From IMG/VR virus record IMGVR_UViG_3300030419_005383, positions 10,296 to 74,295 of that record: 64,000 nt of DNA; one strand, given 5' to 3'. Each line of letters begins with the position of its first letter. The first letter of the stretch is position 1. A program made the position numbers and the translations under genes. The DNA comes from a virus. The notes below the pieces were generated by a model that searched no databases, was not told the DNA's origin, and was given only the letters and a program-made list of their open reading frames with translations. Shown here piece after piece: positions 6,135 through 64,000 of this stretch.

Positions 6135-6183
6135 ACCACCGGGGCCCCACAGGCCCCACCAACCACACAGAGAGAACCACATG
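6132..6183 (+). repeat. Intergenic cassette repeat copy 3
   Basis: TAAACCACCGGGGCCCCACAGGCCCCACCAACCACACAGAGAGAACCACATG. Confidence 0.85.
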
Positions 6184-7290: not shown

Positions 7291-7299
7291 ATCACACTC

Positions 7300-7327
7300 T
7301 TCACTTTTCAAAATTCGTGACAAACAT
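7300..7327 (+). promoter_or_regulatory. Degenerate early promoter class member (TTCACT-N11-GTG-AC-AAACAT)
   Basis: Same spacing as the other four; intergenic. Confidence 0.4.
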
Positions 7328-7357
7328 ATATAGGACACAGACAAACAGGGAGAACCA

Positions 7358-7684
7358 ATGAGCCAAAACGAATCCATTTTGAAATGCCTGACGTGGGCGA
7401 CTACCTTTGCGGAGGGTAGCCGGGACGCTGACGAGTCCCTGGGCAACCCGGTCTTCAACGGTTGGCTTGACGATTGCAAAAACGCAATCCAGTCGCTGAC
7501 CCCAGAGGATGAGGCCGACCAGCAGAAAGCCTCCGAAGAGAGAGACCTTGCAGTCGATGCGCTGAAGCAATTCGTGTCGGCATTTGATGCGGAACTTTTC
7601 GAGCTGGTCATCGCGAAGGCGAACGCTCAAGCGGTCATTAAGAAAATCGAATCCGCAGGAGAGAACCATGAACCGCAGCAGTAA
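7358..7684 (+). CDS. Hypothetical protein
   Basis: GGGAGAACCAATG leader; 108 aa. Confidence 0.7.
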   Translation: MSQNESILKCLTWATTFAEGSRDADESLGNPVFNGWLDDCKNAIQSLTPEDEADQQKASEERDLAVDALKQFVSAFDAELFELVIAKANAQAVIKKIESAGENHEPQQ

Positions 7685-15126: not shown

Positions 15127-15140
15127 CCACAGGAGAAATC

Positions 15141-15998
15141 ATGACTCAACTTCAACAACAAAATCAAAGCCAGCTTGCTGTCCTTCAGGACTACCTGATT
15201 GATCGCAAACACGTCCTACAGGAGCTTGCGCCAGACGGCGTAAACGTAGACAAGATCATCAAGGTTGCCATCTTTGAGGCTGCTAAGAACGAACAGCTTC
15301 GGTCCTGCACACCACAGTCCATGTTTATGGCCATTGGCAAGGCCTGTGAGCTTGGCTTGGCTGCTGGAGGGGTTCTGCATAGGGCAAGCCTCGTGCCCAT
15401 CTACAGCAAGAAGAAGCGGGCCATGGAGGCGGACCTCTGGGTCGAATACACCGGGCTGATGGACTTGGTTCGTCGTTCTGGCGAAATCGCTTCTTTTGTC
15501 GCCCGTGTGGTTCATGAGAACGAAGAGTTCGAACACTACTTTGATGCTGCTCAAGGTGAAGTGCTTCGTCACCGGCCATGCTACGACTCTGACCCAGGTG
15601 GACTTCGGCTGGCTTATGCCGTCGCTTTCTACAAAGATGGCCGTCGTCAGATTGAGGTCATGCGGCGTGACCAGATCCTCAAGATTCGTGACGGCTCACG
15701 CTACAACGGGAATGGTCCGTGGAAAACTCACGAAGAAGAAATGTGGCGCAAAACCGTAATTCGCCGCATTTGCAAATACCTTCCCCTTACACCACAGGCT
15801 ACAGCCGTTATCAACGACGATATCAACACTGAATTTTCCGGCAACATGGACCTGATGGACAACCTGTCAGTCGCAGCCACCGAAACCATTGATGTTGATT
15901 CCGATATTATCGATGAACCGGCTGAGACGATTGCTCAAGAAGCAGTCAAAAAGGCCAAAACAAAAACAGCTAAAAAAACTACTGAGGATGTGAACTGA
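15141..15998 (+). CDS. recT: RecT single-strand annealing protein
   Basis: LRSCTPQS, YTGLMDLVRRSG, GPWKTHEEEMWRKTVIRRICKYLP. Confidence 0.95.
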   Translation: MTQLQQQNQSQLAVLQDYLIDRKHVLQELAPDGVNVDKIIKVAIFEAAKNEQLRSCTPQSMFMAIGKACELGLAAGGVLHRASLVPIYSKKKRAMEADLWVEYTGLMDLVRRSGEIASFVARVVHENEEFEHYFDAAQGEVLRHRPCYDSDPGGLRLAYAVAFYKDGRRQIEVMRRDQILKIRDGSRYNGNGPWKTHEEEMWRKTVIRRICKYLPLTPQATAVINDDINTEFSGNMDLMDNLSVAATETIDVDSDIIDEPAETIAQEAVKKAKTKTAKKTTEDVN

Positions 15999-49827: not shown

Positions 49828-50838
49828 TCAGTGTCGGAATTCGCTGCTAATTTTGCGCGCAGCCTCTGGATTGTTTTCTAACCACAGTCGTATGGCGTTC
49901 GCACCTTTACGTTTCACATCAGCAGGAACACCCTCAATACCGGGAGAACCACTGGCCGAGGTTCGGCTCACTCTGCGCGCCGCATTGGCACGCGCTCTTT
50001 GCTCTTGCGCTTGACGTGCTTGCCGTTCAGCAAGAACCTGTTGCGCCTTTACAAGCTGGTACGCATCCTGCGTATCAATGGCTTGGCCAGCCTCTTGGCG
50101 CCCACGGACAAGTTTAAGGACTTCGTTCTTAAACGTCGGGTCACGCATCTCAGGATGCTTGTCAACAAAGTCCAAGTAGGCGCTTTGTTTAATCTTCCGG
50201 TCAGCCGCCTGGTGGAGTGGCTCCAATACACGACTCATCCCCTGAGCGACCCCACGATCAATGCGGGCCTGAATTCCCTCCGGGGAAAGTGGATCAGGAA
50301 GCTCTTCCTCTGGTACTGAAAGCGTCTCTCTTACCTTCGGATCGTCAATCAGCGCATAGAACTCTGCCTGGCGGCGGGCAAAGTCTCGCTCCATCTGCTC
50401 CAACTTCTGTTGGCGCTGAGCACTTTCCGCTTCCTTAGATGCAATCACCTCTTGCAGTTTCGCGTTGTTCTTTTCGTATGCAACACGGAAGTTGTGCAAC
50501 ATGCGGCGAGCAACGGGTGGAAGATCCTTGATGTGCTCTGGATTCAGGTCGTCGTAGAACCCGTCATGCTCCATCTCTTCGACTTCAGGCAACTCCGAGG
50601 TCAAAGGGTCAAAGCTTACGGGCTCAAAATTGTCGCTCGACACAGGCTCAGACGCAGGCTCAGACGCAGGCTCCGCATCTGCTGAAGCAGCAGTAGCGTC
50701 AACGGTATCAACAGGCGCAGCCTCTACTGCTTCAATTGGCTCTGGCTCAATTGAGTCAACAGAAGAAGCAAGTTCATCCGTAGAGACTGACGCCTCTGCG
50801 GACATGGTTTCATTTACATCGGTGTCTTCGTTAATCAC
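49828..50838 (-). CDS. Capsid scaffolding protein
   Basis: Acidic N-terminus and coiled coil; directly upstream of the capsid gene. Confidence 0.75.
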   Translation of the reverse strand: MINEDTDVNETMSAEASVSTDELASSVDSIEPEPIEAVEAAPVDTVDATAASADAEPASEPASEPVSSDNFEPVSFDPLTSELPEVEEMEHDGFYDDLNPEHIKDLPPVARRMLHNFRVAYEKNNAKLQEVIASKEAESAQRQQKLEQMERDFARRQAEFYALIDDPKVRETLSVPEEELPDPLSPEGIQARIDRGVAQGMSRVLEPLHQAADRKIKQSAYLDFVDKHPEMRDPTFKNEVLKLVRGRQEAGQAIDTQDAYQLVKAQQVLAERQARQAQEQRARANAARRVSRTSASGSPGIEGVPADVKRKGANAIRLWLENNPEAARKISSEFRH

Positions 50839-50902
50839 TGTGTACCCTCATTTCCGTTAATACGAGAATAAAACTTACCACTAAGTACCAACGCTACGCA
50901 AG

Positions 50903-51496
50903 CTATGCAAGCCCCGCTGCGAGTTCTTCGTCTTCAGGAGACATGGCCCCCATTTCAGGCGGAGGGCCAAGCTCACCAGCCGGCGCTTCGGCTGGAGCCT
51001 GCATTGCCTCAATGAGCTTTTTGTCTTTTCTCATCCGAACAAGTTGCGCACTGGTTTTTCTAAGCTCAACGTCGCTAACCATTTGGAGAGGTTCAAAGTC
51101 ATACTTTTCAGCAAACTCACCTTCTCCAACCATCTTAAGGGCCTCAGAGATTGCAACGAGAGGAACAAACAGTGCAGGCGGAATTGGTTCCATCCACTTC
51201 TTTTCAGTACCAAAATCAACCTCAACAGGAGGAAGCTCACCACCACCAAAAACATCAAGCGTTTCGTTGAATTCTTTTTGCAGCGTCTGGAGCGCCTTTA
51301 CTGAATATGGCTTTTCCGGCACTGGGGCTTGAGCCGCGATATCAGAAACCCGAGCCATCGCATCGTCTTGTACCCCTTCAGGAGGCATTGGTGGTGCGGC
51401 ACCTGGCCCACCGGGGGGCATCGGGGGCGCGTCTGGGGCGGCTCCAGGTTCTCCAGCGTATGGAAGGCGTTGTCCGGTTGCGGGGTCGGTGGGCAT
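50903..51496 (-). CDS. Pro-rich hypothetical head-region protein
   Basis: 197 aa; AGGAG SD. Confidence 0.7.
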   Translation of the reverse strand: MPTDPATGQRLPYAGEPGAAPDAPPMPPGGPGAAPPMPPEGVQDDAMARVSDIAAQAPVPEKPYSVKALQTLQKEFNETLDVFGGGELPPVEVDFGTEKKWMEPIPPALFVPLVAISEALKMVGEGEFAEKYDFEPLQMVSDVELRKTSAQLVRMRKDKKLIEAMQAPAEAPAGELGPPPEMGAMSPEDEELAAGLA

Positions 51497-51514
51497 GATG
51501 TCTCCTAAAGGTGC

Positions 51515-52126
51515 TCAGAGAATACCAAGATCTCGTTTGCGGCGAAACTCTTTAAAACCAGGATGTGTATCAAGACGTTCGCAATAATCTGCGTACTCTT
51601 TCTCTTCCTTCTTGTTTTGCGTATCCCATTTAGAATACTCTCGCTCAATGTCCCAGTCACCGTCAACGGGCGTCAATCCACGAGCACGGCAGATGTCTCG
51701 GCGGTGCTGTTTTGATTGAAGCATCACGCCGAGGCCCCGGTCATAGTACGGAAAACGCTCACTGAACCGGTCGATGTTGACTGTGACGGGTCGAACCTCA
51801 GCAGAGGCTCCACAATTGGTGCAAGCAATTGACTTGGGAACTTCGCCGTCAACCAAGTCAATGTCCTCAATGTCTTCATGGCCACAATCACTGCACCGAA
51901 TGTCACGCCAGGCATAATTTTTCTCAGCCTGGCGCCGGTTGGACTCGTCAATCCTGAGTTTTTCACCATGACGGGTAACAGTCAAAGACTGACTCATTCC
52001 CACAGACGGTCGATATTTAGATTTCTGACAGCAGGTGTCGCACTCGACACTTTCCGGTCTGGAAGATGCAGAAAAGAACTTTTCAGTCTCATGTCCGTCT
52101 ACACAAAAAAAACCATACAAAGGCAC
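51515..52126 (-). CDS. Tandem FmdB-like zinc-ribbon protein
   Basis: MPLYGFFCVDGH...CDTC and CSDC...CTNC; YYDRGLG...SKQHRR. Confidence 0.75.
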   Translation of the reverse strand: MPLYGFFCVDGHETEKFFSASSRPESVECDTCCQKSKYRPSVGMSQSLTVTRHGEKLRIDESNRRQAEKNYAWRDIRCSDCGHEDIEDIDLVDGEVPKSIACTNCGASAEVRPVTVNIDRFSERFPYYDRGLGVMLQSKQHRRDICRARGLTPVDGDWDIEREYSKWDTQNKKEEKEYADYCERLDTHPGFKEFRRKRDLGIL

Positions 52127-52128
52127 TT

Positions 52129-54336
52129 TTACATTCCTGGCATCTGAGGTGATCCGCCTACAGCATTAGCCAACATCTGTGCTTGCTGATCGGGCGGTAG
52201 TTGAGCCAACTGGTCCAATGTTGCCAACATTTCAGGGTCGTTCGCAAAGACCTCACGCAACATTGGAATCGCTTGCTCTGGTGGAAGTGTAGCAATCTGT
52301 GCGAGGTCAGGTGGCGCTCCAGGCACTCCAGGCGCTCCAGGTGGAGGAGCCTCTGGCTGCATTTCTTCCGGCCCAGCTTCAGGTTGTTCCTGCTTTGCTT
52401 CAGCTTCCGCCTTCTCCATTTCTTCTTTACCGCGAGTTTCCAGCTCTTCTGGGTGTAGATCCTGCGGAAGATCAAAACGCTCAGCAACAACTTTCATATA
52501 CGATTTAGCAAAGGCGCCCATAGGGCCACCCTCTTGAGCCGCCTGCCATAGTGCTGTCAACGGTTGCAGTAAAGCCACCAAATTCTGTTGCATCGCGGCA
52601 TCATTCAACGGGGTTCTGCCACCCTCAACAAAGTTGACCTCAAACTCAGCATCAAGGTCCATTACCGCAACCGCAATCATTTCTCGACGATCCATCAGCT
52701 TTAGAACCGACTGCTCAACAGCCACGCTACCGTCTTCCAGCTCAGACTTCCCAAGTTCAGGAACCTGGCCACCGTCGAGGTAAGACGAAGGTCCTCCAAA
52801 AATCTTATCTGCTTCTGAGTGCTTGACCTGAGATTCTGTCTCCTCATCAATCTCTTCAGAGTCAGAGGACTTTTCATCCCCGTCTGGGATCGCGCCAACT
52901 TCTGCGTACTCTACAGCCTGGTCTTCATAGGCCCCGGTGCTGTCGCCAGCGTCTTGCATGGCCCCAATCAGAGCCCTAAGCATGAGTTTGACCACTTGTG
53001 CCAGCCATTCGTCCCTGATGGAGGCGTGTAGACCGTACTCAGATTCCGTGTACTGCTGAACCGTTTGGACCTCAAAGGCCGTTGCCTTGGTCACCTGGCC
53101 TCGTGCCGCCGGGCTGGTTCCAATAGCCAATTGCAGATCGCGCTCGACCTGGCTCAGGTAACGATCAATGTTTGCCGAAATCGGGGAATTCTGGATTGGA
53201 ATAATCGCATCGCCAAGCGGGCGCTCGAATCCCTGCTCTACCTCAAGGACCAGCCCATCATGACCTTCCGTTAGGTTGGTCAACTCATCGCTTGAAAACG
53301 TGCCCTTACGAGTAATGTACTGACGGGTATCTTTACGCGTCGCCATCGCCATAAACGACCGATAGCCATTCAGCTCTCGCAGTTGAGGCATCATGCGCCG
53401 AGCATGCGCAATCCCGCGAAGCGGAAATTCAGGCTCATGATTAAAGATCAGCGGAACCACATGCGCCATCGGTTGACCAGACGGTGTCGCAAACGGAAGC
53501 GGACCAATCCATACGGGCGTCTTGGACAATTCGCCTTGGCCCAAAATATAGATTTCCAGCCTGCCGTTGTAGATGATGTCGGGATTCTGTTCGTCCCGCA
53601 CTTGATCCTCCAGATTACAAAGCTCCAAAACCCGCACAAAGGCCTGATTATCTGACGGTGCCTGATTGGTCTTTTTGGTCGTTTTTGAGTCAAGTTGGGA
53701 CTTTTGAGCCAGAAAATCAACCCTTGCCGTCCCCGCTAAGCCTTCAAGACCGTATTCCTGCTCAACCTCATGGATCGGCCTGTAATACAGGTGTCCACGA
53801 TATCGCTCGTCTTCCACATCCCGCACGTCGCGGTCCAACATGATTTCCCACCAGGGAATGACGCGCATCCAAACCCGGTCCATCGGATTGCCGTGACCAG
53901 GGTCATACCCAATCTTGATGCCGGAGCCTGGATACAGCAACGACTGACGCAACGCTGAAACAACACGCTGATGAATGCGGCGCATAGACAAACAACGGTT
54001 GACCGCCAGCTCTGCTTTTGGAGCATCACCCTGACCCATCACATCTTGGCTAAGCACCGCGCGAGCGGCCCGCGGATACAGCGCCGACAAGTAAGACGAG
54101 ATGACACCCCACAGCCGGTTGACCTCAACGTCAATGTCGGTCATCTGGGCCATGCTTCCGCTACTACTTGGCGGAAGCGTGCCTGTGCGAACATGATCCC
54201 AATACTTGGTCATGTACGCAGCTTTGGCCAAAGCCCAATGCTGGCGGTTCTCCCGCATGTATTTGTCATGAACTTTGACGTGTTCATGGACCTGTTTGTG
54301 TGTCAACATGTCGGACTTGGATTCGTATTCAGACAT
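52129..54336 (-). CDS. Portal protein
   Basis: 735 aa after the terminase; TKATAFEV motif; Pro/Gln-rich tail. Confidence 0.85.
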   Translation of the reverse strand: MSEYESKSDMLTHKQVHEHVKVHDKYMRENRQHWALAKAAYMTKYWDHVRTGTLPPSSSGSMAQMTDIDVEVNRLWGVISSYLSALYPRAARAVLSQDVMGQGDAPKAELAVNRCLSMRRIHQRVVSALRQSLLYPGSGIKIGYDPGHGNPMDRVWMRVIPWWEIMLDRDVRDVEDERYRGHLYYRPIHEVEQEYGLEGLAGTARVDFLAQKSQLDSKTTKKTNQAPSDNQAFVRVLELCNLEDQVRDEQNPDIIYNGRLEIYILGQGELSKTPVWIGPLPFATPSGQPMAHVVPLIFNHEPEFPLRGIAHARRMMPQLRELNGYRSFMAMATRKDTRQYITRKGTFSSDELTNLTEGHDGLVLEVEQGFERPLGDAIIPIQNSPISANIDRYLSQVERDLQLAIGTSPAARGQVTKATAFEVQTVQQYTESEYGLHASIRDEWLAQVVKLMLRALIGAMQDAGDSTGAYEDQAVEYAEVGAIPDGDEKSSDSEEIDEETESQVKHSEADKIFGGPSSYLDGGQVPELGKSELEDGSVAVEQSVLKLMDRREMIAVAVMDLDAEFEVNFVEGGRTPLNDAAMQQNLVALLQPLTALWQAAQEGGPMGAFAKSYMKVVAERFDLPQDLHPEELETRGKEEMEKAEAEAKQEQPEAGPEEMQPEAPPPGAPGVPGAPPDLAQIATLPPEQAIPMLREVFANDPEMLATLDQLAQLPPDQQAQMLANAVGGSPQMPGM

Positions 54337-54345
54337 ATCTACTCA

Positions 54346-55908
54346 TCACCGCAGAATGGATTCGCTTTGGAATGGACTTCTTCGAGCATGATAACGCCTC
54401 TTTGAGCTTCGGGTTCTCACCTGCCTGCCTCGAAGCGTTCGACGGTTCCACTCAGCCAGCATCAAAGCATCGGCATGGTCATCATGGTAGCCGTCCTGAC
54501 CCTCAATCTTTCCGTTGACTTCTCGAATGTGCATCAACTCTTGAATTGTCTGCGCATCCATCAGCGTCAAGGCGTCACCATTCACCATTTGGCGCAAGTG
54601 AGCATACGCTTCTTGTTTTGAGCCTCGGTGTGTCGTCCAATACTTGACTTGGGTAGACGGCATTCTTCCCGGTGGAGTCGGCTTGGTCCAAAGCGGAATG
54701 TTGTGCTTTTGAAACTCCCTCAAGACAACTGGGCCGGCGCCGCCTGGATTGTGCTCTACCAAAGACCGAGCCTTTCCGTAATGAATGGCGAGTTCTGCTG
54801 CTTTCGTAGCGAACAACATTTCCCCCCCCTGGTTCATCGAAAGCGTCGCAACCTGACGCCCATCACGACTGAGCACCTGCGCTACCGCGTAGTCTCCACC
54901 ATTACACCACGACGGGTCTACACCCATCGCATACGTCATGCCTGGAATCGGGCGCTCAAAAATTCTTAGAGTGCCCTCTGACTCTTCGACCGACGAATAC
55001 ACATCATTAAGGTAGTCGGCATCAAACCAGCTACCATCCACAATCATAAAGCCATCTTCCAGCGTCAGCGGATACTCCCGCCGAAATCTGGTCAGGCCAA
55101 TACCGTTGACACCATGAATCTTGTTGTGGCGCCAATAAAGCTGCTCCATGTCCAAGCCATGCGTTTGAGCCAGCTCCCATTCTTCCTGGTCAGGCTCCCA
55201 GCTCTTAGGCACCTTGGTTCGATAGGCGTCATGGTCAGCCCACTTGAAAAACCGAAATTGAACAGTCGGGTCACCGTTCAGCATCGCTTCCTGTGCAGCT
55301 AAAACCTTGCGATGGAACAAATTGCCAGGCCCATCAGCCGTAGACATGATGATGATCTTACGGTGCGGCCCCGCGTGCAGCGTCGAAGTCACACTGGCCC
55401 AAACCTCTTCCGCGTTCGGCCAGAACGCCAACTCGTCTGCGTGAAGACGTTGATATGTCCAACCACGCGCTTCTGATCGTCCACCCGCGGTCATACATCG
55501 AAACCCGGCGCCCGTGTCATCGAACAACAACTCGCGCTTGTTTGACCGGGCCACAGAACGCCGCAAGGGTGTCGGTAGCGACTTGTAGTAGTGTCGAATC
55601 TTACCAAAGATAGCGTCAGTAGTCTCATAAGAGTCGCCAACCACCAAGCAGCGGACCGGGTCCTGCGCCCAGTACAAGTACCCGAAATTGTACGCGGTTC
55701 CGACTGTCGTGTTTCCGATCTGGCGGGGCTTATAGTGAATCACCGTCTCAGCAGGAGACAGGAAATCATTCATCGCCAACACCTGCTCTCCAAACGGAGC
55801 AGTCATTGAGCGGTCCTGGCCTCGCTGGTCCACAATCCGTAAACGAGAAATAAACTCAAACGGATCCTGCGCTAATACCCGCAGCTTCCGCTTGATTCTT
55901 GCGTCCAT
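54346..55908 (-). CDS. terL: Terminase large subunit
   Basis: KPRQIGNTT, LHADELAFW, MSTADG, FRREYP, MGVDPS, HDDHADAL. Confidence 0.95.
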   Translation of the reverse strand: MDARIKRKLRVLAQDPFEFISRLRIVDQRGQDRSMTAPFGEQVLAMNDFLSPAETVIHYKPRQIGNTTVGTAYNFGYLYWAQDPVRCLVVGDSYETTDAIFGKIRHYYKSLPTPLRRSVARSNKRELLFDDTGAGFRCMTAGGRSEARGWTYQRLHADELAFWPNAEEVWASVTSTLHAGPHRKIIIMSTADGPGNLFHRKVLAAQEAMLNGDPTVQFRFFKWADHDAYRTKVPKSWEPDQEEWELAQTHGLDMEQLYWRHNKIHGVNGIGLTRFRREYPLTLEDGFMIVDGSWFDADYLNDVYSSVEESEGTLRIFERPIPGMTYAMGVDPSWCNGGDYAVAQVLSRDGRQVATLSMNQGGEMLFATKAAELAIHYGKARSLVEHNPGGAGPVVLREFQKHNIPLWTKPTPPGRMPSTQVKYWTTHRGSKQEAYAHLRQMVNGDALTLMDAQTIQELMHIREVNGKIEGQDGYHDDHADALMLAEWNRRTLRGRQVRTRSSKRRYHARRSPFQSESILR

Positions 55909-56490
55909 TCACCCACTCGTCGGCAGTTTCCACTTCGAACCACCGCCTGTACCCAGAAACTTTCTCAGTTCATCCAGGTCAACTACAATCGCATCCGGGT
56001 CTTTGGAGTTCTTGAACCGGACTGATGCATATTGCTTAAACGCCCACTCACGCTTGTCGCACATACCATCACGAAGGCCCTCCCAGAACCGCCTGTCGAG
56101 AAACCGGAACTCCTCTTCGCCCACCGGCTCCACGTCAGGAAATTCCGAGTAAAACCAGCCCACGAAGCGCGGGTCTTCTTTGCACCAATGCTTCCATAGT
56201 GTTTCGTTAACTTTCCGCATTTTACGGTGCTTTTGACGAGATTCCTCAAACCACTCTCTGCGAAACACTTTGCCGGTTCGAACCAATTCGTATGCAACAT
56301 CTCGAAACGCTCGCTGTGAAGCCGTAGGAGAGAACCCGCTAAAATCAACGTCTCCATCAAGGAAACGACGCACCGCATCGTGTGCTGATGCCTCTTCTTC
56401 AATAACGTCAGGCACCAAATCATCGTTGGCGCCCTCGTCAATCAGCCTCAATTTAGGTTTTTCTTCATCGCCAATGTCATAACGATCCAT
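55909..56490 (-). CDS. Putative terminase small subunit
   Basis: Abuts terL; AGGAG SD before ATG 56490. Positional call. Confidence 0.55.
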   Translation of the reverse strand: MDRYDIGDEEKPKLRLIDEGANDDLVPDVIEEEASAHDAVRRFLDGDVDFSGFSPTASQRAFRDVAYELVRTGKVFRREWFEESRQKHRKMRKVNETLWKHWCKEDPRFVGWFYSEFPDVEPVGEEEFRFLDRRFWEGLRDGMCDKREWAFKQYASVRFKNSKDPDAIVVDLDELRKFLGTGGGSKWKLPTSG

Positions 56491-56534
56491 CAAAAACTCC
56501 TGTGCTACCCTATTAGAAATACCACGAGATTCAT

Positions 56535-56750
56535 ATGAGCACCCAAGACCTACACCCACATTCCGACATCGTCGAGTATCTGAAAGAAACAAACACACCG
56601 ATGCAGCCTGCTTTCGCAGTGGCCTCGCCAGAAGAAAAGGCCAGGTACATCACGCGGATCACCAAGCGTTTTCATGACGCCTGGAAGCAGAATCAAAAAG
56701 GAATGTCGCTGGTTTCAACTCGCGTAGACGTAGACGGGGCCGGAGAGTAG
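56535..56750 (+). CDS. Possible small protein on the opposite strand
   Basis: Fills the gap between terS and ssb; overlaps the ssb 3' end; weak SD. Confidence 0.35.
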   Translation: MSTQDLHPHSDIVEYLKETNTPMQPAFAVASPEEKARYITRITKRFHDAWKQNQKGMSLVSTRVDVDGAGE

Positions 56751-57100
56751 CCATCAGTCGAATTCTGGCTGACTTTTGAGCCCAAAAACTTCACAGTCTT
56801 CGCGCTGATTTCAGTAGAACGGCGATCTTTGCCTTCTTTGTCTGTCCAATCGCGCGTGCGCAACGAACCCTCGACGTAAATTTGGGAACCCTTTCTCAAG
56901 AACTTGGCGACGTTTTCAGCCGTGCGGCTCCAGGCCGTCACGTTGAACCACTCAACTACCTCACCCCACTCTCCGTCTGGTCCCTTTCGGCGCTCGTTTA
57001 CAGCCAGCCGTAAGTTCACAACAGGTTCTCCAGACCGTGTTTTACGCAATTCCGGGTCGTGACCCAAATTACCAATCAAATGAACAACATTCACACCCAT
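56693..57100 (-). CDS. ssb: Single-stranded DNA-binding protein
   Basis: VNVVHLIGNLGHDPELR, EWFNVTAW, KGSQIYVEGSLRTRDW, C-terminal DIPF. Confidence 0.97.
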   Translation of the reverse strand: MGVNVVHLIGNLGHDPELRKTRSGEPVVNLRLAVNERRKGPDGEWGEVVEWFNVTAWSRTAENVAKFLRKGSQIYVEGSLRTRDWTDKEGKDRRSTEISAKTVKFLGSKVSQNSTDGYSPAPSTSTRVETSDIPF

Positions 57101-57128
57101 CACTGCTCCAATCCTCCACGTTTACGTT

Positions 57129-57272
57129 TTAGTAACTACTCTTTTTTACGGACTTTTTCTTGCCGGTTGATTTTCCATAGCTTGATTTAGCCTTCTTCAC
57201 CGGCTTCTTTTTCTTCTTTCCATAGTGCTTCATTGCCTTAGCTGCGCCATCTCTCAGCTTGTCCATTGCCAT
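57129..57272 (-). CDS. 47-aa Lys-rich peptide (not in ORF track)
   Basis: MAMDKLRDGAAKAMKHYGKKKKKPVKKAKSSYGKSTGKKKSVKKSSY*; TAATG overlap with the upstream gene. Confidence 0.65.
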   Translation of the reverse strand: MAMDKLRDGAAKAMKHYGKKKKKPVKKAKSSYGKSTGKKKSVKKSSY

Positions 57273-57676
57273 TACTTCTTCCCTTTGCCTTTACGGGCAT
57301 CCAACTGACGGACAATCTTCCTCGCCTGCGCATATCCAGCGTCACCACCCCAAAGCATCGATGCAACGTACCCTTTGTCCTCTGTAGGCTTCTTTCCCTT
57401 GTCCAGCTTCCGGTCTTTCTGGTGACGGTCATGGTAAGCCTTGACCCGCCTCCATGTTGAAGGACTCAAGTTCTTTCGATTGGCCATGTTTGAAGCGCGA
57501 GTCACACCAGAACCGATGCCCTGCTTCTTTGCTTCTTTTGGGTCTAAGCCAGCTTTTCCGCTTTTCGGCTGTTTCCGTCGCAACTCTAAACCGCGCTTTG
57601 CTGCCGCTGCTGTCGATTTGCTGGGTTTCATATTGATTTCTTTCGAAATACCCTGAGCCAATTTCTTCACAGACAT
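57272..57676 (-). CDS. Basic conserved phage head-region protein
   Basis: AKRGLELR...GVTRA...LSPST..R...RH...GYVASMLWGGDAG motif. Confidence 0.8.
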   Translation of the reverse strand: MSVKKLAQGISKEINMKPSKSTAAAAKRGLELRRKQPKSGKAGLDPKEAKKQGIGSGVTRASNMANRKNLSPSTWRRVKAYHDRHQKDRKLDKGKKPTEDKGYVASMLWGGDAGYAQARKIVRQLDARKGKGKK

Positions 57677-58063
57677 CTATTCAGCCTTCTTTTTTTCTCG
57701 CAACATACGCAATGCAATCGCGAGCGCCTGGTCCTTGCTCTTACCTTCTTTCATCAGCTTCTTCATCTTCTGCCCAACCCAAGCGCGCTCCTCTTTTGTC
57801 ATAGGAAGCTTACGCCTTCTCCCCGTTTTTTTCTTTCCAGGCATGTCAGACCCCTTCTTGCGGTTCGTCTCTTTACTGACCGCTCTTAGATTCTTGTCGC
57901 TATTCCCTCCGCCCTTTGACTTCGGGATAATGTGGTCCGCTTCTTCTGGATCGCCCTTTTTCAGCCCCAACTTACGCCGAGCCTTATTCGCTAAGTTCCG
58001 ACCATCCTTGGCTTTGCGGCTCGAATGGAACAGCCGGTATTCACGTTTGTAGTTTCGGGGCAT
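57677..58063 (-). CDS. HNH-type endonuclease with basic C-terminal tail
   Basis: ADHIIPKSKGGGNSDKNLRAVSKETNRKK; near the terminase. Confidence 0.8.
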   Translation of the reverse strand: MPRNYKREYRLFHSSRKAKDGRNLANKARRKLGLKKGDPEEADHIIPKSKGGGNSDKNLRAVSKETNRKKGSDMPGKKKTGRRRKLPMTKEERAWVGQKMKKLMKEGKSKDQALAIALRMLREKKKAE

Positions 58064-58066
58064 TCG

Positions 58067-58249
58067 TCAATACTTCTTTACCGACAGCTTATTCGAACGC
58101 AGACCAGCAACAGGGGGGCCAACTTGCTTGACCGGTTTATCAAGGCTTGGGGCTTTGCCAGAAACATGCGGGCTGGCTTTCGGTTTCTTCCGCTTCAACG
58201 GCGAATTCCTCAAACTCATGCTTGAGACCAGCAGATCAAGACCCTTCAT
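58067..58249 (-). CDS. Small basic protein
   Basis: ATGA overlap at 58246-58249; Lys/Pro-rich. Confidence 0.55.
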   Translation of the reverse strand: MKGLDLLVSSMSLRNSPLKRKKPKASPHVSGKAPSLDKPVKQVGPPVAGLRSNKLSVKKY

Positions 58250-58659
58250 GTCAAACGACTCCCGGCACCACCAGGCTGATACCCCCAAGACTCAAGCGCA
58301 CGCTTCAGCGCGTCAATGTCTCGCTCATATTTCTCAGAATCAGGATGCGAGGCCGGAAAAGCTACGCCACGACGACTCAACTTCGACAAATGAGTCGTAT
58401 ACTCGTTCACTTTCTCTCGATACTTCCCAGAAAGCTCCGCTGGCTTCATGTCTGCGTAATCCAAAACCTTTCCAACCAGCTCAGAACGCTCATTTTGCTC
58501 TGGAGTGAGATCAATGGCCGGCTCAGCCAAAACCTGAGACTGTACACCACCCATGTTAGCGGCCAACAATTCGTCGTCCGTAGGACCCACTGGGGCGCCA
58601 GGATCCGCCAAATAACGGTCTTCAGGGCTCAAAAAACGCTCTTCTCTCGTCAATGCCAT
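58246..58659 (-). CDS. Hypothetical protein
   Basis: 137-aa ORF in an operon. Confidence 0.7.
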   Translation of the reverse strand: MALTREERFLSPEDRYLADPGAPVGPTDDELLAANMGGVQSQVLAEPAIDLTPEQNERSELVGKVLDYADMKPAELSGKYREKVNEYTTHLSKLSRRGVAFPASHPDSEKYERDIDALKRALESWGYQPGGAGSRLT

Positions 58660-58670
58660 GCTGTTTGCCC

Positions 58671-59552
58671 CTAAAAACTGGGAAAATCTACACGCTCGTC
58701 GCGTGATCTCTCTTCAGGAAGACCCGTTCGGCCCGTCTCTTTAAACATCTCTTGGAACTCATCACGGGCCTTGTCGCCCACCCGCGGTGCCTCAAACAGG
58801 CCCATCTTGTTGTATTCGTTCCTGATCTCACGATTCCGGTCGTCACGAAGGAACCTGAGAACATCATTAGGCAAATCATCCGCAACAAGTGGACGGCCAT
58901 CCTTGTAGTACAACGCCATCATCAAACCACGGTGAGCCTGAGAGTCAGGAGCGCCGCTGCGGAGAGACGGGAATTTTTGAAGCATCGACGCATGAATTCT
59001 CGCAGGCTGTTCGCCAAATTCAAGAAGCGCCTGTGTAATGCCCTCGTCGCTGCCCACCTCAGGCTCGCCAGCCAACGTCGTGGCAGCAGTCTCTTTCCCT
59101 ACGCTTGGCGACTCGGTTGCCATAAAATCCATCAACTCGCGCTCGTCATCGTCCATATGACCCAACCATCGACGAACATCACCAGCCGCTTGGGCTGACC
59201 GGTCCATTGGGCCTGGCGTGAACTCCGGTGCAAAGCCAAGTGCGGTGCCCAACTCTTCAATGCCCTTCTTGACAGCCTTCTCCGTCAATGGAGAACGAGA
59301 ACCGCCAGTGCGAACGTCCAGCTTTGGTTCATCAAAAGGCACAATTAAGTCGGACATGAGACCGGCCACACGAGCTGCCCTCGCTAAGCCTGGTTCCTCA
59401 AGCCAAGGCCCTTCACTTTCCTTAGGTCGTCCAGACTCTAAGAGAGATGACGCAATGTCTTGGACCTGGCCAGCAGCGCCAGACCAGTCACCAGCAGATG
59501 CCATCTGCTTGGCTTTCTCAAGTTGTCTCAGGTATTCTTCTCGGCTCGCCAT
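58671..59552 (-). CDS. Hypothetical protein
   Basis: 293-aa ORF; GGAG SD. Confidence 0.75.
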   Translation of the reverse strand: MASREEYLRQLEKAKQMASAGDWSGAAGQVQDIASSLLESGRPKESEGPWLEEPGLARAARVAGLMSDLIVPFDEPKLDVRTGGSRSPLTEKAVKKGIEELGTALGFAPEFTPGPMDRSAQAAGDVRRWLGHMDDDERELMDFMATESPSVGKETAATTLAGEPEVGSDEGITQALLEFGEQPARIHASMLQKFPSLRSGAPDSQAHRGLMMALYYKDGRPLVADDLPNDVLRFLRDDRNREIRNEYNKMGLFEAPRVGDKARDEFQEMFKETGRTGLPEERSRDERVDFPSF

Positions 59553-59555
59553 TGG

Positions 59556-60857
59556 CTACTCCATCGTCTTGGATTCTTTGTATTGGCCAGCAGAAGGCGC
59601 AGGCGTCCCCCGCGTGAACTCTCCACGAGCGCCAGGACCGTAAAGCTCAGCACGCTCTTCCATGAGCCTTTGCTCTCTCAGTGCTTCAGCGCGTTCTGCA
59701 TCCTTCTTTCTCCTATAGGGAGAATCATAGACTCGCTGCATGGATGAGCCGACGTATCTACCAGACGCTTTAAGGTCAGCACGGTGCCGAGCTGCAAATT
59801 CATCTTCAGACATGCCAAACCGAGCCTTAAATTCCGGTTCAGACATGCTGGCCATCAACGCACTGTCCACAGGATCCTTAGCAACAGCCTCGCTAGCACT
59901 AAGCTCCTGGCTGACACCGAGACCACCAGCTTGCGCTGACTCGCGATCCAATTGACGCAACCAGATCGTTCGCAAATTGGCCAGACTCGTCAACTGATCA
60001 TCTGTCGGTGGAGTGCCCTGGGCCATTAACTGAGCGCGCTTCCAAGCATAGGTCTCACCCATCTTCACTGACGGCAACTCAAACAAACCAGACGCGGCCA
60101 TCTTAGCTGCCTCAGTTTCTGTCGTCTCGCCTACTTTAGGTTCGTTGGACATCTTGCTTTGCTCCTTAGTGCTCACGTATGTCTCATCAACAGCAGGTAG
60201 TGTTTCTTTTAGATCGTCTGGATGGGCGCCGATCTGTTTCAATTCTTCTTCTGTCATCCCCTCGTATTCCCAAGGACGAAAGTAAGTCGGCCACTCTTCC
60301 GCAGTGGCGCTGGATGTGCCAGGTGAGAGATTTTTAGGCCCTTTATCTTCTTCATCTTCTTCCTGGCTACGTTTCGCGGCTTCCATGGCTTCGGCCAGAC
60401 TTATGCCCCCCTCTCTTGCGGCTGCGGCTTTTATGGCTTCGGACAGGCCCATGCCCTCCTCCAACATGTCGTCTACTTCTGCGAGCTTGAGTCGGTTTTG
60501 GTGAGCCACTCGTCTTTCTTGTTGGGACTCAGATATACCCTCTGCGATTTTTGCGTCTTCAGTCTCTGAAGGCTTGTGATCTGGGTGGTCGGTGACGTTC
60601 AGCGTTTCGCCCGTGTCCTGGTTTACGAGGAAGATTCGGTCGATACCGTCGTCACCTACGACAACGTGGCGGTCCCAGTCTGGGTTGCTGTCCCAGGGAT
60701 CAACATAAGAAGTCACTGTGCCAGCTTCCCCTGTTAGGCGATGCTCCAGGTCATCCGCTGCGTCGTACCCCTTTGGGACATTAATCACGTTGCCAGAGTA
60801 GTTACGCGCATCGTCTGCGGCGCGTTCGGCGTTGGTGTCGTCCCGTTCGTTGGCCAT
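59556..60857 (-). CDS. Acidic, largely low-complexity hypothetical protein
   Basis: GGGAGG SD before ATG 60857. Confidence 0.75.
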   Translation of the reverse strand: MANERDDTNAERAADDARNYSGNVINVPKGYDAADDLEHRLTGEAGTVTSYVDPWDSNPDWDRHVVVGDDGIDRIFLVNQDTGETLNVTDHPDHKPSETEDAKIAEGISESQQERRVAHQNRLKLAEVDDMLEEGMGLSEAIKAAAAREGGISLAEAMEAAKRSQEEDEEDKGPKNLSPGTSSATAEEWPTYFRPWEYEGMTEEELKQIGAHPDDLKETLPAVDETYVSTKEQSKMSNEPKVGETTETEAAKMAASGLFELPSVKMGETYAWKRAQLMAQGTPPTDDQLTSLANLRTIWLRQLDRESAQAGGLGVSQELSASEAVAKDPVDSALMASMSEPEFKARFGMSEDEFAARHRADLKASGRYVGSSMQRVYDSPYRRKKDAERAEALREQRLMEERAELYGPGARGEFTRGTPAPSAGQYKESKTME

Positions 60858-60899
60858 GTGCGCCTCCCGTTCCACAACAGCATAGCGCGCTCACGCCAC

Positions 60900-60938
60900 A
60901 AAAGAAAAGACCCGCGCCAACAGACAGTGACGCGGGTC
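60900..60938 (-). terminator. Rho-independent terminator of the candidate sRNA (and upstream operon)
   Basis: GACCCGCGTCA/TGGCGCGGGTC stem followed by TTTTCTTTT on the - strand. Confidence 0.85.
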
Positions 60939-60978
60939 CAACCACAGGGAACGCTTGAGAGAACCAGTCACAAGCATC
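60900..60978 (-). ncRNA. Candidate trans-acting antisense sRNA targeting early-gene RBS leaders
   Basis: Own promoter and terminator. Contains UGGUUCUCUC and CCCUGUGGUUGG, complementary to the GAGAGAACCA and CCAACCACAGG leaders of many early genes. Confidence 0.65.
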
Positions 60979-60984
60979 AACAAG

Positions 60985-61013
60985 ATACTAAACACATCGC
61001 GTGTCCGCGTCAA
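60985..61013 (-). promoter_or_regulatory. Sigma70-type promoter of the candidate sRNA (TTGACG-N17-TAGTAT)
   Basis: Near-consensus hexamers; GTG-N2 before the -10 as in the early promoters. Confidence 0.7.
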
Positions 61014-61225
61014 TCCCTGGCACCCTCAGAAGGCCAAATCCAGCCACTATGTCCATTTGAGCATCTCCATGCCCCCTGTGGGCCCCTGTTCTCTTCTATC
61101 TTCTGCTGCAACGTCATCTGTTTCGCCAAGGACCGACGAGCACCACAGCCCAATACTGGACACTTGCTGCCTTCTTGCCGCCACTCAAACCGAAGATGGC
61201 CAAACATGTCAATCTGCTTTGTCAT
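61010..61225 (-). CDS. Small Zn-ribbon protein
   Basis: CPVLGC...WRCSNGH. Confidence 0.6.
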   Translation of the reverse strand: MTKQIDMFGHLRFEWRQEGSKCPVLGCGARRSLAKQMTLQQKIEENRGPQGAWRCSNGHSGWIWPSEGARD

Positions 61226-61770
61226 CCACTCTCAACTGGCCAAGACTCCCAACCAACCGCTCGCTGTCGTGCAAACAACTCTAACTTGCGTTGCGTCGGA
61301 AACATCAAATCAATCCGCTCTCGCACCTCGTGCGGCTTCGCTGAGTGAACACCCCTCGGCGCATCTACCAACTGACGCACGTTTCGGGCGCCGCGAGGCT
61401 TCGGTATCTTCCCACGCTTGCCTACCAAGCACAGTTCACACTGGCTCATCGTGTAGAAGCCAGGATTAACCCTGTCTTTCATCCAGACAAAGGCAACCGT
61501 CGCCCACTTGAAGCCCCAGGCCTTCATCAGCTCAATCGCTTGGTCTAAATGAGGCGATGTCGCCCACAAGAACAGCAAACAGTCGTCCTCAGCTACTTCT
61601 TGGACAGGTAACGCCTTCAGGTCCCGCAACTTTACTGTCGAGTAATGACTGATTGCACCGCCAGAAGTAGGCTTGCCTGCACCCGTGTGCTGTACCTGAC
61701 CCTTGTAATCCCACGGTGGATCCGCGTAAATCACCGAAAACCTGCCCGATGGCAGTGTTTCAAACATCAT
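61222..61770 (-). CDS. MT-A70 family N6-adenine methyltransferase
   Basis: VIYADPPW, LLFLWAT, AWGFKW, ELCLVGKRG, HSAKP, KLELFARQ...GWESW. Confidence 0.93.
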   Translation of the reverse strand: MMFETLPSGRFSVIYADPPWDYKGQVQHTGAGKPTSGGAISHYSTVKLRDLKALPVQEVAEDDCLLFLWATSPHLDQAIELMKAWGFKWATVAFVWMKDRVNPGFYTMSQCELCLVGKRGKIPKPRGARNVRQLVDAPRGVHSAKPHEVRERIDLMFPTQRKLELFARQRAVGWESWPVESG

Positions 61771-61937
61771 TTACTATCCAAAAGCTTCAATATTGGGCCA
61801 AATGCCTTCTCCAAACCGTCGCGTCGCTCCTTGTACAAAGGAACCCAGCGAACCGTATCTGTCGGAATATGCTTCCATAAAGTCATGAATTCCGCAGTAT
61901 CGTAGGCAATAAACCTGAAATTCTTATAAAGCCCCAT
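61767..61937 (-). CDS. Hypothetical small protein
   Basis: Coupled ORF MGLYKNF... Confidence 0.5.
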   Translation of the reverse strand: MGLYKNFRFIAYDTAEFMTLWKHIPTDTVRWVPLYKERRDGLEKAFGPILKLLDSK

Positions 61938-62400
61938 CCGCTCGCCCCCGAAAACACTCTGGCACGCTTGGCACACCGTCAATCGCTCGAACCACAATCT
62001 CTACGCGAGGACCACGATCACGCTCCGCGTAGCAGTCCCACACCTCGTGCTTCACAACCTGGCTGTCGTCACGAATCACACCAGCCATCACCAAAGCGTC
62101 TAAAGCGCACTTGGCAATATTGTCCGAGTCAGGCTTGCTTGTCTTCCAGATCAAACCGTCTGGGTCCTTCTTGCGCAACAACCTCTTCGGTCGTGACGCA
62201 GCAGCAAGAATAGTCACCTCTACTGGACCATCCTCTGGTGCTTGACGCCATGAACCGCCAATCAACATCGCCGCAGACTTCTCCCAATCAGAAGTCTTCT
62301 TCGGCGTATACATCTTTACGAATCCACCCCGAACTGCTCCCCGAGGACGCCCTTTGCCAATCGGCGGTCCAGGGATGATAAATCTGTGAGACCCAACCAC
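61924..62400 (-). CDS. rusA: RusA-family Holliday junction resolvase
   Basis: GKGRPR, YTPKKT, KPDSDNIAKCALDAL..DDSQVV. Confidence 0.93.
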   Translation of the reverse strand: MVGSHRFIIPGPPIGKGRPRGAVRGGFVKMYTPKKTSDWEKSAAMLIGGSWRQAPEDGPVEVTILAAASRPKRLLRKKDPDGLIWKTSKPDSDNIAKCALDALVMAGVIRDDSQVVKHEVWDCYAERDRGPRVEIVVRAIDGVPSVPECFRGRADGAL

Positions 62401-62720
62401 TGCTTACCTCCTATTTCGAATAAATACTGCCTCAACGGCGCAACAATCGCAGAATGTGGCCCATTCAAAACGGACAACCACAAACCATCCAATATCCAGT
62501 ACAAGTCTTCCAGGCCTTCGTCTTTTCCCGTCCTGCGGTAGTCGTCGATGTGCTTAAAGCCGCTGTTTAGACGAACTGGAGTGCTCAGCATCCATCCCTC
62601 GATGTGACGCCATTGATGACGGTCAACGCTTTTGGCTTGAAGTAACAAGTACCAATCACCAATCAGCTTGAGCAGAAGCTGCTCTAAGTCATCTGCTACT
62701 CGATCAGATGGCTTCAGCAT
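62316..62720 (-). CDS. Hypothetical protein
   Basis: Start at ATG 62720; overlaps the rusA 5' end. Confidence 0.55.
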   Translation of the reverse strand: MLKPSDRVADDLEQLLLKLIGDWYLLLQAKSVDRHQWRHIEGWMLSTPVRLNSGFKHIDDYRRTGKDEGLEDLYWILDGLWLSVLNGPHSAIVAPLRQYLFEIGGKQWLGLTDLSSLDRRLAKGVLGEQFGVDS

Positions 62721-63672
62721 TTTCTTCCACCACTTCCCAACGTATCGGCGACTGCCACTCGCTCCACTCTGGCCAGGCCGCATACATCAGAATCTTCTCA
62801 AACTCGTCTGGAGTGACCATGACCTCATGGACGCTGTTGCGAGACCTTGTTTCTCGTTTGTACTGGATTCCGCGGCACATCTCGCGCAATCCTCGTGGAA
62901 CAAGGTACTCGTCCTCCAGGTAATCAACAAGCAAGCGCTCCCAGAAGCCCCTGATGAGCGGCCTCCTCATGTTGTTCCGAGTCAACCTGATACACGGCAC
63001 GTTGCCCGGTAATCCCTCAACATCTGAGGCAGGCTCCCAGACCTTGCCCAGAGCAAGCTTAGACTGCCTGAAAGCTGGGCCAAACGTTGGTTCTCCACGG
63101 TTATCCATAAAGATCCTGTGGATAACTTTAAGCACCAGCCATGCTGTCCATGGTCGCTTGTGCTTCAGTGGCTTCTTCGCTTTTGACTGGTCAACTATAC
63201 CGATATGGTACAAAACCTTGGTCAAGCCTGATGTTGCGCTGTTTTTAGCTGTCCGTATGTGGACCAGACGGCCCAGAGGATCGGAGATGACGTACTCGCT
63301 GCTGTCCGTTTCAAACGACCACCGGCCTGTTCTGAGGGAGTTCGCACGAGTCCTGTGAGGAAGCTCCTCATCACGCTCTGGATTCTGCCTGACGCCAGTC
63401 TCGTAAAAAAGATGAATGTTCGGACGCATCACGTCCATGAACTCCTCTTCCAAATCGAGGCGCTTAATGACGATATCGCCCTCTGCCATCCAGTCATCAG
63501 CCTCACTTGAGATGAATGTCACGACATGAAATGAGACCTTTTGGTCCTCTGGGATCTCAGCTTCACGGCGCAAACGCTCGGCGTCTCGGAAGTCTTCCAC
63601 CTCATAAGTATCAACAACACTAAAGCCCCTCTGAGGGAACAAACCACCAATCAAAAAGTAATCACTACTCAA
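62704..63672 (-). CDS. Hypothetical protein
   Basis: 322-aa ORF with TTGA overlap. Confidence 0.75.
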   Translation of the reverse strand: MSSDYFLIGGLFPQRGFSVVDTYEVEDFRDAERLRREAEIPEDQKVSFHVVTFISSEADDWMAEGDIVIKRLDLEEEFMDVMRPNIHLFYETGVRQNPERDEELPHRTRANSLRTGRWSFETDSSEYVISDPLGRLVHIRTAKNSATSGLTKVLYHIGIVDQSKAKKPLKHKRPWTAWLVLKVIHRIFMDNRGEPTFGPAFRQSKLALGKVWEPASDVEGLPGNVPCIRLTRNNMRRPLIRGFWERLLVDYLEDEYLVPRGLREMCRGIQYKRETRSRNSVHEVMVTPDEFEKILMYAAWPEWSEWQSPIRWEVVEENAEAI

Positions 63673-63950
63673 TTTTCGCCTTCCTCATCACTCCAGGCCC
63701 AGTACATCGGACCAACCTTCATCAATGGAACGGTGACGTTCCCGACCTCAGGAAACCGGACCCGCATTGTCATGTCGAGGATGCCTTCTTCCGCTTCTTC
63801 AACGTAAACCTCACTTGAAGACGGAACCCCTCCATGATCTCCGACCTTCTTGAACAACGTAAGAATCGACTCAATGCAGACGCCACGGGCCTCTACGTTC
63901 AGGTCAACATCTCTTAATGTTGCTGGATTCACCTGCGTAAAACGTTCCAT
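63669..63950 (-). CDS. Hypothetical protein
   Basis: 93-aa ORF; first gene of the - strand arm in this window. Confidence 0.65.
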   Translation of the reverse strand: MERFTQVNPATLRDVDLNVEARGVCIESILTLFKKVGDHGGVPSSSEVYVEEAEEGILDMTMRVRFPEVGNVTVPLMKVGPMYWAWSDEEGEN

Positions 63951-64000
63951 GACATACGCATATCACATTCCCGCACCATAGTTTACTATCACTATCACTA

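Follow-up and report, generated by a model that had tools for sequence, protein, structure and literature searches.

The 64,000-nucleotide (nt) stretch of viral DNA analysed here (the window) comprises bases 10296–74295 of a 74,295-bp IMG/VR virus record, IMGVR_UViG_3300030419_005383, that is rated complete. At 60900–61013 of the window, on the − strand, lies a short non-coding unit whose predicted RNA mirrors a translation-initiation leader carried by more than 25 rightward early genes of the same phage. We regard the chances as even that this unit is a stand-alone gene for a trans-acting anti-leader small RNA (sRNA) of about 79 nt that represses early translation. As we read the sequence, one predicted RNA probably turns down the leader-bearing early gene set together.

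The rightward (+ strand) genes of this phage occupy record positions ~600–28,000 and include many small ORFans, a GP88-family protein, a primase/helicase block and RecT. Leftward (− strand) genes begin at the right end of the record with a short operon encoding proteins of 93, 322 and 155 amino acids (aa), RusA, a 76-aa protein, an MT-A70 methylase and a 71-aa protein. They continue with 433- and 293-aa ORFans, small genes, the large terminase (TerL), the portal, the major head protein, internal virion proteins and a 4060-aa protein. The predicted sRNA unit falls exactly at the junction of the 71-aa and 433-aa genes.

A − strand unit bracketed by a predicted promoter and terminator

The initial annotation of this DNA placed a promoter, a transcription start, a hairpin and a terminator on the − strand between 61013 and 60900, and we recovered each of them at that place. 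The features of the unit and of the spacer behind it are as follows:

60985–61013, − strand: sigma-70-like promoter, TTGACG (61013–61008), 17-nt spacer, TAGTAT (60990–60985); 9 of 12 consensus matches
60900–60978, − strand: predicted 79-nt small RNA, from the predicted +1 (seventh base past the −10 hexamer) to the end of the U-tract
60950–60978, − strand: 5′-terminal hairpin, RNA positions 1–29; 10 pairs, one U–U mismatch and the 7-nt loop CUGGUUC
60957–60966, − strand: seed A, UGGUUCUCUC, RNA positions 13–22; complement of GAGAGAACCA, the Shine–Dalgarno (SD) sequence and spacer of the early leaders
60938–60948, − strand: seed B, CCUGUGGUUGG, RNA positions 31–41; complement of CCAACCACAGG, the C/A-rich upstream half of the leader
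60900–60939, − strand: intrinsic terminator, a 12-pair G+C-rich stem (hairpin 60939–60908) followed by UUUUCUUUU
60858–60899, − strand: spacer from the terminator to the 433-aa gene, with a possible weak promoter TATGCT (60884–60879) and the SD sequence GGGAGG (60868–60863)

The promoter is the sole good − strand site (9/12) within 50000–64000, and its −35 hexamer includes the TGA with which the 71-aa gene upstream ends. The terminator heads the terminator ranking of the region and is the strongest within 1.6 kb downstream of RusA; no strong promoter follows it, the TATGCT there having a poor −35. The unit is thereby bracketed by its own promoter and its own Rho-independent terminator, both consensus predictions, and the reading frames inside it are not kept in relatives.

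The 79-nt − strand RNA folds into the 5′ hairpin, a 10-nt linker and the terminator, with an energy of −31.3 kcal/mol (z −4.7) that none of 200 shuffles equals. The + strand of the same unit reaches −23.6 kcal/mol, 7.7 kcal/mol worse, and has no U-tract. The loop CUGGUUC, which opens with a YUNR-type CUGG, had been said to expose most of seed A, and it does so for 6 of the 10 bases; the other four lie in the 3′ arm of the hairpin. Seed B falls in the single-stranded linker, as also claimed, with its final two bases belonging to the terminator stem. No Rfam family could be assigned to the element: a search of the whole window at the gathering score matched none, and a search of 60700–61200 with E values up to 10 returned no C4 match and chance-level matches only, with E about 1 (ncr1241, a betaproteobacterial toxic sRNA). 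Read on the + strand, the element consists of CCAACCACAGG, eight extra bases, GAGAGAACCA and GTC, which amounts to a leader interrupted by an insertion and devoid of a start codon; in the − strand RNA, the eight inserted bases give rise to the 3′ arm of the 5′ hairpin.

Complementarity to a shared early-gene leader

The two seed targets are the two halves of one long translation-initiation leader, with the consensus AACCACAGGAGAGAACCA-ATG (~20 nt). In the listed regions before + strand starts, a whole or partial copy stands ahead of the early genes counted above. Four copies lie within the 10.3 kb of the record that precede the window, and leader words are the most repeated 9-mers genome-wide; leftward genes have plain GGAGG sites instead. 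The word GAGAGAACCA occurs in exactly 7 copies, all on the + strand, six at start codons and the seventh in the element itself (60957). Allowing up to 1 mismatch gives 21 sites against 5.4 expected, and the words AACCACAGG (6 sites against 0.6 expected) and CCAACCACA (5 against 0.55) exceed expectation tenfold, in leaders and in the element. The predicted target sites are:

250, 1129, 1977, 3265, 6170 and 7659, + strand: exact seed-A sites at early-gene starts, target region 250–7668
2707, 7348, 4715, 5081 and 5622, + strand: seed-A sites with one change, at early-gene starts
1114, 1205, 1969, 3257, 5063, 5604 and 6159, + strand: seed-B sites at early-gene starts
15125–15143, + strand: leader of the RecT gene (RecT family match), AACCACAGGAGAAATC-ATG, a seed-B target; cofold energy −15.1 kcal/mol

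All the seed-A and seed-B sites that had been claimed are present, and to them we add a seed-B word at 7751 and the four leader copies upstream of the window. The distance of 45–60 kb between unit and targets given in the initial annotation holds on the linear map only. Because the window ends at the end of the record and leader-bearing genes run from record position 3046 onward, the nearest targets would be about 6 kb from the unit if the genome is permuted or circular.

We scored start regions from −30 to +6 against the 49 nt of the element ahead of the terminator, with a threshold of at least 8 nt of perfect complement. This segment matches 18 of the 53 called + strand start regions and none of the 40 − strand ones. 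Dinucleotide-preserving shuffles of the element match a mean of 2.9 starts, and none of 200 to 300 reaches 18, in agreement with the seed enrichment that had been proposed. When ~22,000 sliding 49-nt windows clear of called starts were scored, zero beat the element, and the single tie was an uncalled early leader (window ~1106–1112). Net cofold energies, which include the cost of opening the hairpin of the RNA, average −10.1 kcal/mol for + strand starts versus −5.7 kcal/mol for − strand starts (Mann–Whitney P = 1.4e-5). The best values, −24.3 (gene 6181–6666) and −22.6 (gene 263–1003), have both seeds paired. Against the start region of the downstream gene, the window RNA pairs over just 6 nt.

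Three leader copies stand within a recurrent layout. Intergenic modules at 5040–5090, 5590–5630 and 6135–6180 (+ strand) precede three tandem paralogous genes, and each consists of a G+C hairpin of the GGGGCC-CCACA-GGCCCC type that lacks a U-tract, followed by ACCAACCACACA and a GAGAGAAC(C/A)A leader. The hairpins may be processing or stabilising elements. The layout of these modules is also that of the sRNA element read on the + strand.

Most related genomes carry a similarly built unit at the same junction

The comparative evidence from relatives is new relative to the first observation of the unit. We compared 11 genomes, namely that of the window phage (G000) and ten complete or near-complete relatives (G001–G010), and drew in addition on 54 loci of related viral contigs recovered via the terminase gene (TerL about 70% identical at the protein level, genomes of 70–75 kb). 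Searches of these 54 loci with the element by blastn and nhmmer returned no DNA homologue, so the comparison was built on position and architecture. The gene order p322, p155, RusA ... p136, p229, TerL is kept in the relatives, and the 433-, 293- and 71-aa genes are not. Just past the RusA operon, the strongest terminator of the relatives has a G/U-rich, inverted-leader-like stretch ahead of it. For all genomes we therefore applied a uniform rule, taking the strongest terminator no more than 1.6 kb after RusA together with the 49 nt before it.

In the 130 nt before each junction terminator we sought the best sigma-70-type site. The promoters found overlap the end of the upstream gene and have a 17-nt spacer (TTGACG/TACTCT, TTGACA/TACTCT, TTGCCG/TATAGT, TTGCGT/TAGAAT, TTGTCA/TAGGAT and TTGACG/TACGTT). 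Promoter position alone predicts RNAs of a short type (62–89 nt) and a long type (118–123 nt); examples of the RNAs of relatives lie at L031:3562–3637, L058:4131–4197 and L044:1146–1207. Each predicted RNA consists of a hairpin exactly at +1, a G/U-rich linker (UGUUUGUU-type) and the terminator. A promoter score of at least 8.5 combined with a paired 5′ end occurs at 8 of the 11 junction terminators, whereas only 2 of the 117 strong terminators elsewhere in these genomes have it (Fisher P = 5e-9).

The segments defined by this rule complement the + strand starts of their own genomes:

G001: 10 of 45 starts; reached by 0 of 200 shuffles
G003: 12 of 55; 0 of 200
G005: 9 of 39; 0 of 200
G007: 12 of 49; 0 of 200
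G009: 4 of 26; 2 of 200
G006: 4 of 48; 4 of 200

With G000 (0 of 200 shuffles), own-leader complementarity is significant in 7 of the 11 genomes. The matched parts in relatives reach over the SD sequence, and in G003 and G005 also over the AUG; − strand starts, that of the downstream gene included, are hardly matched (0–5 per genome). Leaders vary among the genomes, and the elements vary along with them. The window RNA matches 34% of its own leaders and no more than 5% of those of any relative, and the G005 and G003 elements likewise score best on their own genomes. The GAGAGAACMA motif showed no enrichment in five relatives, whose leaders differ. The initial annotation had proposed a search for the sRNA and for leader changes in related phages; the unit and its own-leader match are found there at the frequencies given above, but as a recurring architecture and not as a DNA homologue.

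Outside the terminator, 5 of 6 sequences of the best-sampled subgroup retain CTCTCCT(G/A)T. This segment complements ACAGGAGAG, and the words ACAGGAG and AGGAGAG rank with the most enriched ones ahead of + strand starts in G001. The 5′ arm with which CTCTCCT(G/A)T pairs varies in sequence and register. MAFFT and RNAalifold, run over all short-type units, recovered the terminator alone, because the 5′ hairpins are not alignable. In more distant RusA-encoding phages (49% identity or less) the unit is absent.

A second conserved sigma-70-like promoter stands right behind the junction terminator of the relatives, either TTGCT(A/T), ~17 nt and TAAAGT, or TTGAC(T/C), 17 nt and TAGTGT. Its −35 hexamer abuts or overlaps the U-tract of the terminator, so that the RNA unit and the promoter of the next operon are physically interlocked. 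It was located at:

L019:3300–3345, L031:3627–3670, L058:4197–4245 and L020:3800–3845, loci of relatives: second promoter after the terminator

A further feature of most relatives is an SD-like GGAG(A)/GAGG at the extreme 5′ end, which pairs with the anti-SD (U)CUCC (L090:3723–3737, L102:987–1001 on the − strand, L044:1146–1159 and L058:4131–4146). The anti-SD may be masked until the linker docks, in a toehold-like design; alternatively, the pairing may hint at a different function.

Proposed mechanism and its known counterparts

In the mechanism that we propose, host sigma-70 RNA polymerase would transcribe the unit leftward from a promoter overlapping the end of the last leftward early gene and would stop at the unit's own intrinsic terminator. 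The hairpin loop and 3′ arm (UGGUUCUCUC) would mirror the SD sequence and spacer of the leader, and the G/U-rich linker (CCUGUGGUUGG) its C/A-rich upstream half, with the loop (CUGG, YUNR-type turn) and the open linker serving as two toeholds. Full pairing would mask the C/A-rich enhancer-like tract, the SD sequence and the spacer up to the AUG. It would exclude 30S subunits, probably with subsequent mRNA decay, from about 18–26 early messages at once, and would spare the leftward operon and the late genes with their ordinary GGAGG sites. That the RNA is produced, when it is produced and that pairing represses are inferences from the sequence. The timing could take the form of late shut-off of early genes, damping from the start or a block on a superinfecting twin. 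The terms "master switch", "immunity" and "carrier silencing", used in the initial annotation, go beyond the data.

We also advance, more tentatively and at clearly less than even chances, a broader proposal: a family of uncultured marine phages may time or limit its rightward early programme by a dedicated RNA of ~60–120 nt, with RNA and leader co-diversifying such that each lineage has its own matched pair. If so, a resident phage could silence a superinfecting twin but not a cousin, and insertion behind a copy of the leader would be enough to bring a newly acquired gene into the regulon. An RNA of this kind, encoded in trans by the phage and matched to a leader that some twenty early genes share, would amount to a post-transcriptional regulon switch, an RNA equivalent of RegA/RegB in T4 or of a repressor. 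The retention in some phages of start-codon-associated motifs much longer than an SD sequence, a question that goes back to the start-associated sequences (SAS) of cluster K mycobacteriophages, would then also have an explanation. The matched RNA–leader pairs of the relatives would constitute a natural set of orthogonal translational repressors.

By analogy, the closest working analogue is GcvB of enterobacteria, in which the single-stranded GU-rich R1 silences CA-rich translation-enhancing elements at or before the ribosome-binding site (RBS) of more than 40 mRNAs (PMC3879156; Sharma et al. 2007 cited there). GcvB and the window unit are alike in being trans-encoded, in having their own promoter and intrinsic terminator and in directing a GU-rich single-stranded stretch against a CA-rich leader of many mRNAs. 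GcvB, however, is a chromosomal, Hfq-dependent RNA of about 200 nt that acts on amino-acid transport genes through loosely alike target sites, whereas the window RNA is phage-encoded, ~80 nt long and directed at the phage's own early genes through a near-identical ~20-nt leader, with a second seed in a hairpin loop. As regards Hfq, the U-rich terminator tail alone is visible in the window RNA. The likeness is one of mechanism and not of membership, as there is no Rfam or sequence match to GcvB.

The c4 RNAs of P1 and P7 and the CI RNA of P4 carry two short seeds that pair with two sites around the RBS and block translation; the seed–target pairs differ between related phages and set specificity. 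These RNAs are processed from the very transcript that they control and act on one operon. The window RNA resembles them in mechanism only: its seeds A and B pair with two leader halves, and both are used in the best cofold. It differs in having a dedicated promoter and terminator and about 18–26 separate targets, on the opposite strand and in another region of the genome, and no family match links it to them.

To our knowledge, each phage antisense RNA described so far controls a single gene or operon, in most cases in cis. Sar of P22 and OOP and aQ of lambda are small antisense RNAs that block translation of phage mRNAs or destabilise them (PMC12197685). They are cis-encoded opposite a single target, whereas the window RNA is encoded elsewhere and has multiple targets. 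The precedents c4, CI, sar, OOP and aQ each concern one operon and are cis-encoded or processed from the target transcript (PMC12197685), and none of them is reported to control a leader-defined regulon.

Two further systems resemble parts of the arrangement. The lambda 6S RNA (PR′–tR′) has a comparable setting: it is transcribed from a constitutive sigma-70 promoter, terminates after a short distance and maps between the nin/RusA region and the late genes. A recent listing places it among Hfq-binding phage sRNAs and gives its function as unknown (PMC12197685). In contrast to the lambda case, no Q homologue was found near the window unit, and the relatives have a separate promoter after the terminator. 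We know of no complementarity between 6S and other phage mRNAs. For the target leader, the nearest described analogue is the SAS motif of the cluster K mycobacteriophages, which is conserved, exceeds an SD sequence in length, stands right before the start codons of a gene subset and has a function that is still open (PMC3203893). Its sequence, host and phage type are unrelated to those considered here. We know of no RNA complementary to SAS.

Weighing the alternatives

Several observations count against an anti-leader sRNA. Four genomes, G002, G004, G008 and G010, show no more complementarity than shuffles do. The 5′ hairpin sequesters four of the ten seed-A bases and, in relatives, most of the anti-SD. 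The promoter and +1 are predicted from consensus sequences; the promoter also shares its sigma-70 type with the early promoters, such that the RNA may be co-made with its targets. The element resembles an inverted early "hairpin + leader" module, and its sequence could partly reflect origin and not function. Both partners are of low complexity (C/A-rich versus G/U-rich), which inflates weak matches. RNAduplex energy separates the element from shuffles modestly in G000 (z −2.5) and, among five relatives tested, discriminates only in G004 (z −3.8). Because a 45-mer need only be G/U-rich to pair loosely with C/A-rich leaders, this measure has little discriminating power, and it was replaced by contiguous-complement counts and net cofold energies. 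The anti-leader reading of the initial annotation is partly supported, with strong support at the computational level. It gains from strand specificity, from the shuffles and from a conserved junction unit matched to its own leaders, and loses from the 4 of 11 genomes in which complementarity is not significant.

The most serious rival is a real, conserved short RNA with another job, the leader match being a by-product of inverted duplication and G/U-rich composition; we consider this unlikely, but less so than any other alternative. Such an RNA could pair with host mRNAs, act as a sponge for Hfq or another RNA-binding protein or work in cis, by insulating the leftward operon, occluding the promoter behind the terminator or masking the SD sequence of the first downstream gene in read-through transcripts. 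The architecture is conserved at more junctions (8 of 11) than show significant complementarity (7 of 11), and the pairing of the anti-SD with the SD-like GGAG(A) inside the 5′ hairpin of relatives would suit a different role. In G007, moreover, the first downstream gene has GGAGAGAG ahead of its start, a possible partner for the RNA, and the 6S transcript of lambda offers a precedent for a short Hfq-binding RNA without a known function (PMC12197685). These points are countered by the clustering of matches on + strand start regions, where they cover the SD sequence or AUG, and by the near absence of matches at − strand starts and at the downstream gene. Own-genome specificity is also hard to derive from composition alone.

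Considerably less probable, in our view, is that there is no separate RNA: the hairpin would be the terminator of the leftward operon, the "promoter" a coincidental match, and the anti-leader a neutral relic of an early module that recombination left in inverted orientation. The early intergenic regions do share a + strand layout of G+C hairpin, CCAACCACA and GAGAGAACCA (5081, 6170), mosaic junctions are common in the region, and the element has no DNA-level homologue in relatives. However, a promoter at fixed distance and a hairpin at +1 recur in independent, unalignable sequences, and relatives with other leaders have correspondingly other anti-leaders. Nor would a relic persist at one junction across genomes with TerL just ~70% identical. 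The initial annotation had itself raised the possibility of a + strand leader relic whose gene was lost, which is unlikely: the sole + strand frame is Ser/Pro-rich junk, and the architecture is strand-specific.

Still less probable is a late leader of the lambda PR′–tR′ type, in which a constitutive promoter yields a short terminated RNA, like 6S, until an antiterminator acts, and the RNA is a by-product. The position would fit, past a nin-like block (RusA, MT-A70 methylase and a zinc-ribbon-like protein) and ahead of genes leading to the terminase, portal and capsid, as would the lack of a good promoter behind the terminator in the window. Yet the 71-aa and neighbouring proteins match no Q or antiterminator family in Pfam or PHROGs, and the relatives have a clear second promoter behind the terminator (TTGCT(A/T)-~17 nt-TAAAGT; TTGACT-17 nt-TAGTGT), at a place analogous to that of TATGCT in the window. 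The complementarity to the leader would also be left unexplained.

That the + strand is the functional one, with the leader and a TTG start at 60955 driving a 109-codon rightward gene antisense to the 71-aa gene, is scarcely credible: the frame is open (60955–61284) and AGGGA stands six bases ahead of the TTG, but its product is rich in Ser, Pro, Leu, Thr and Cys and lacks family-like features, and the frame runs into the MT-A70 gene, which is itself well supported. On the other strand, the overlapping frame specifies a plausible zinc-ribbon-like protein for which a homologue exists. The + strand leader copies of relatives have no start codon after them, and the hairpin is a terminator on the − strand only. 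The 109-codon frame was rejected as compositionally implausible.

Environmental variants and neighbouring genes

The sequencing runs listed for the window sequence are DNA runs from marine or seawater metagenomes, with no RNA run among them, and the contigs of four provided variants of the region. In a contig of one seawater run, 60855–61414 has a single base change, and the adjoining part of the 433-aa gene is 85% identical. Contigs of three runs lose their likeness exactly left of 60863, at the edge of the SD sequence of the downstream gene, which marks a mosaic junction; one of the diverging contigs runs into a different gene, whose product starts with MATISEIK, like the gene of relatives at the same place. 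Another run has a 705-nt deletion within the 433-aa gene (60142–60848), and an 84%-identical variant of the element (60863–61178) is present in run X5. The near-invariance of 60855–61414 and the mosaic edge at 60863 together indicate that a cassette of the RNA unit, its terminator and the next 45 nt moves as a block while the downstream cargo changes. Judging from these sequences, the regulatory cassette seems fixed and the 433-aa gene behind it interchangeable cargo.

The upstream neighbour of the unit is:

61010–61225, − strand: 71-aa gene, last of the leftward early operon, with CPxxGC...CxxGH spacing (zinc-ribbon-like); it lies outside the RNA and ends inside its promoter

The 71-aa protein has no Pfam or PHROG match, and a search of 5.8 billion proteins found one homologue (73 aa, 70% identity, on a 1.2-kb Logan contig). 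The place of the gene before the next operon recalls, by analogy, small zinc-finger late activators such as P2 Ogr. Relatives sought through the 433-aa and 71-aa neighbours in viral and metagenome contigs yielded none, and a DNA search of a phage collection with 59500–62500 gave no match. An exact-seed pattern search hit 11 unrelated loci in viral contigs and 120 chance loci in metagenome contigs, none resembling the region. Five of the unrelated viral contigs (L002, L003, L005, L006 and L009) contain arrays of ~37-bp repeats, TTGACTCA ... TGGTTCTCT, which look like iterons or repeated promoter/operator units and have no relation to the sRNA finding.

Elsewhere in the window, the ~600 nt at 58064–58670 separate the 293-aa from the 128-aa leftward gene and contain only a + strand frame of 175 codons, with no convincing gene on the − strand; they may be a regulatory region or contain an overlooked small gene. 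The terminase of the best cultured relative is just 26% identical to that of the window phage. The 4060-aa open frame (24962–37144, − strand) lies among internal-virion/ejection genes and has zero PHROG family matches, and the 1004-aa protein encoded beside it has a transglycosylase-type match at its C terminus.

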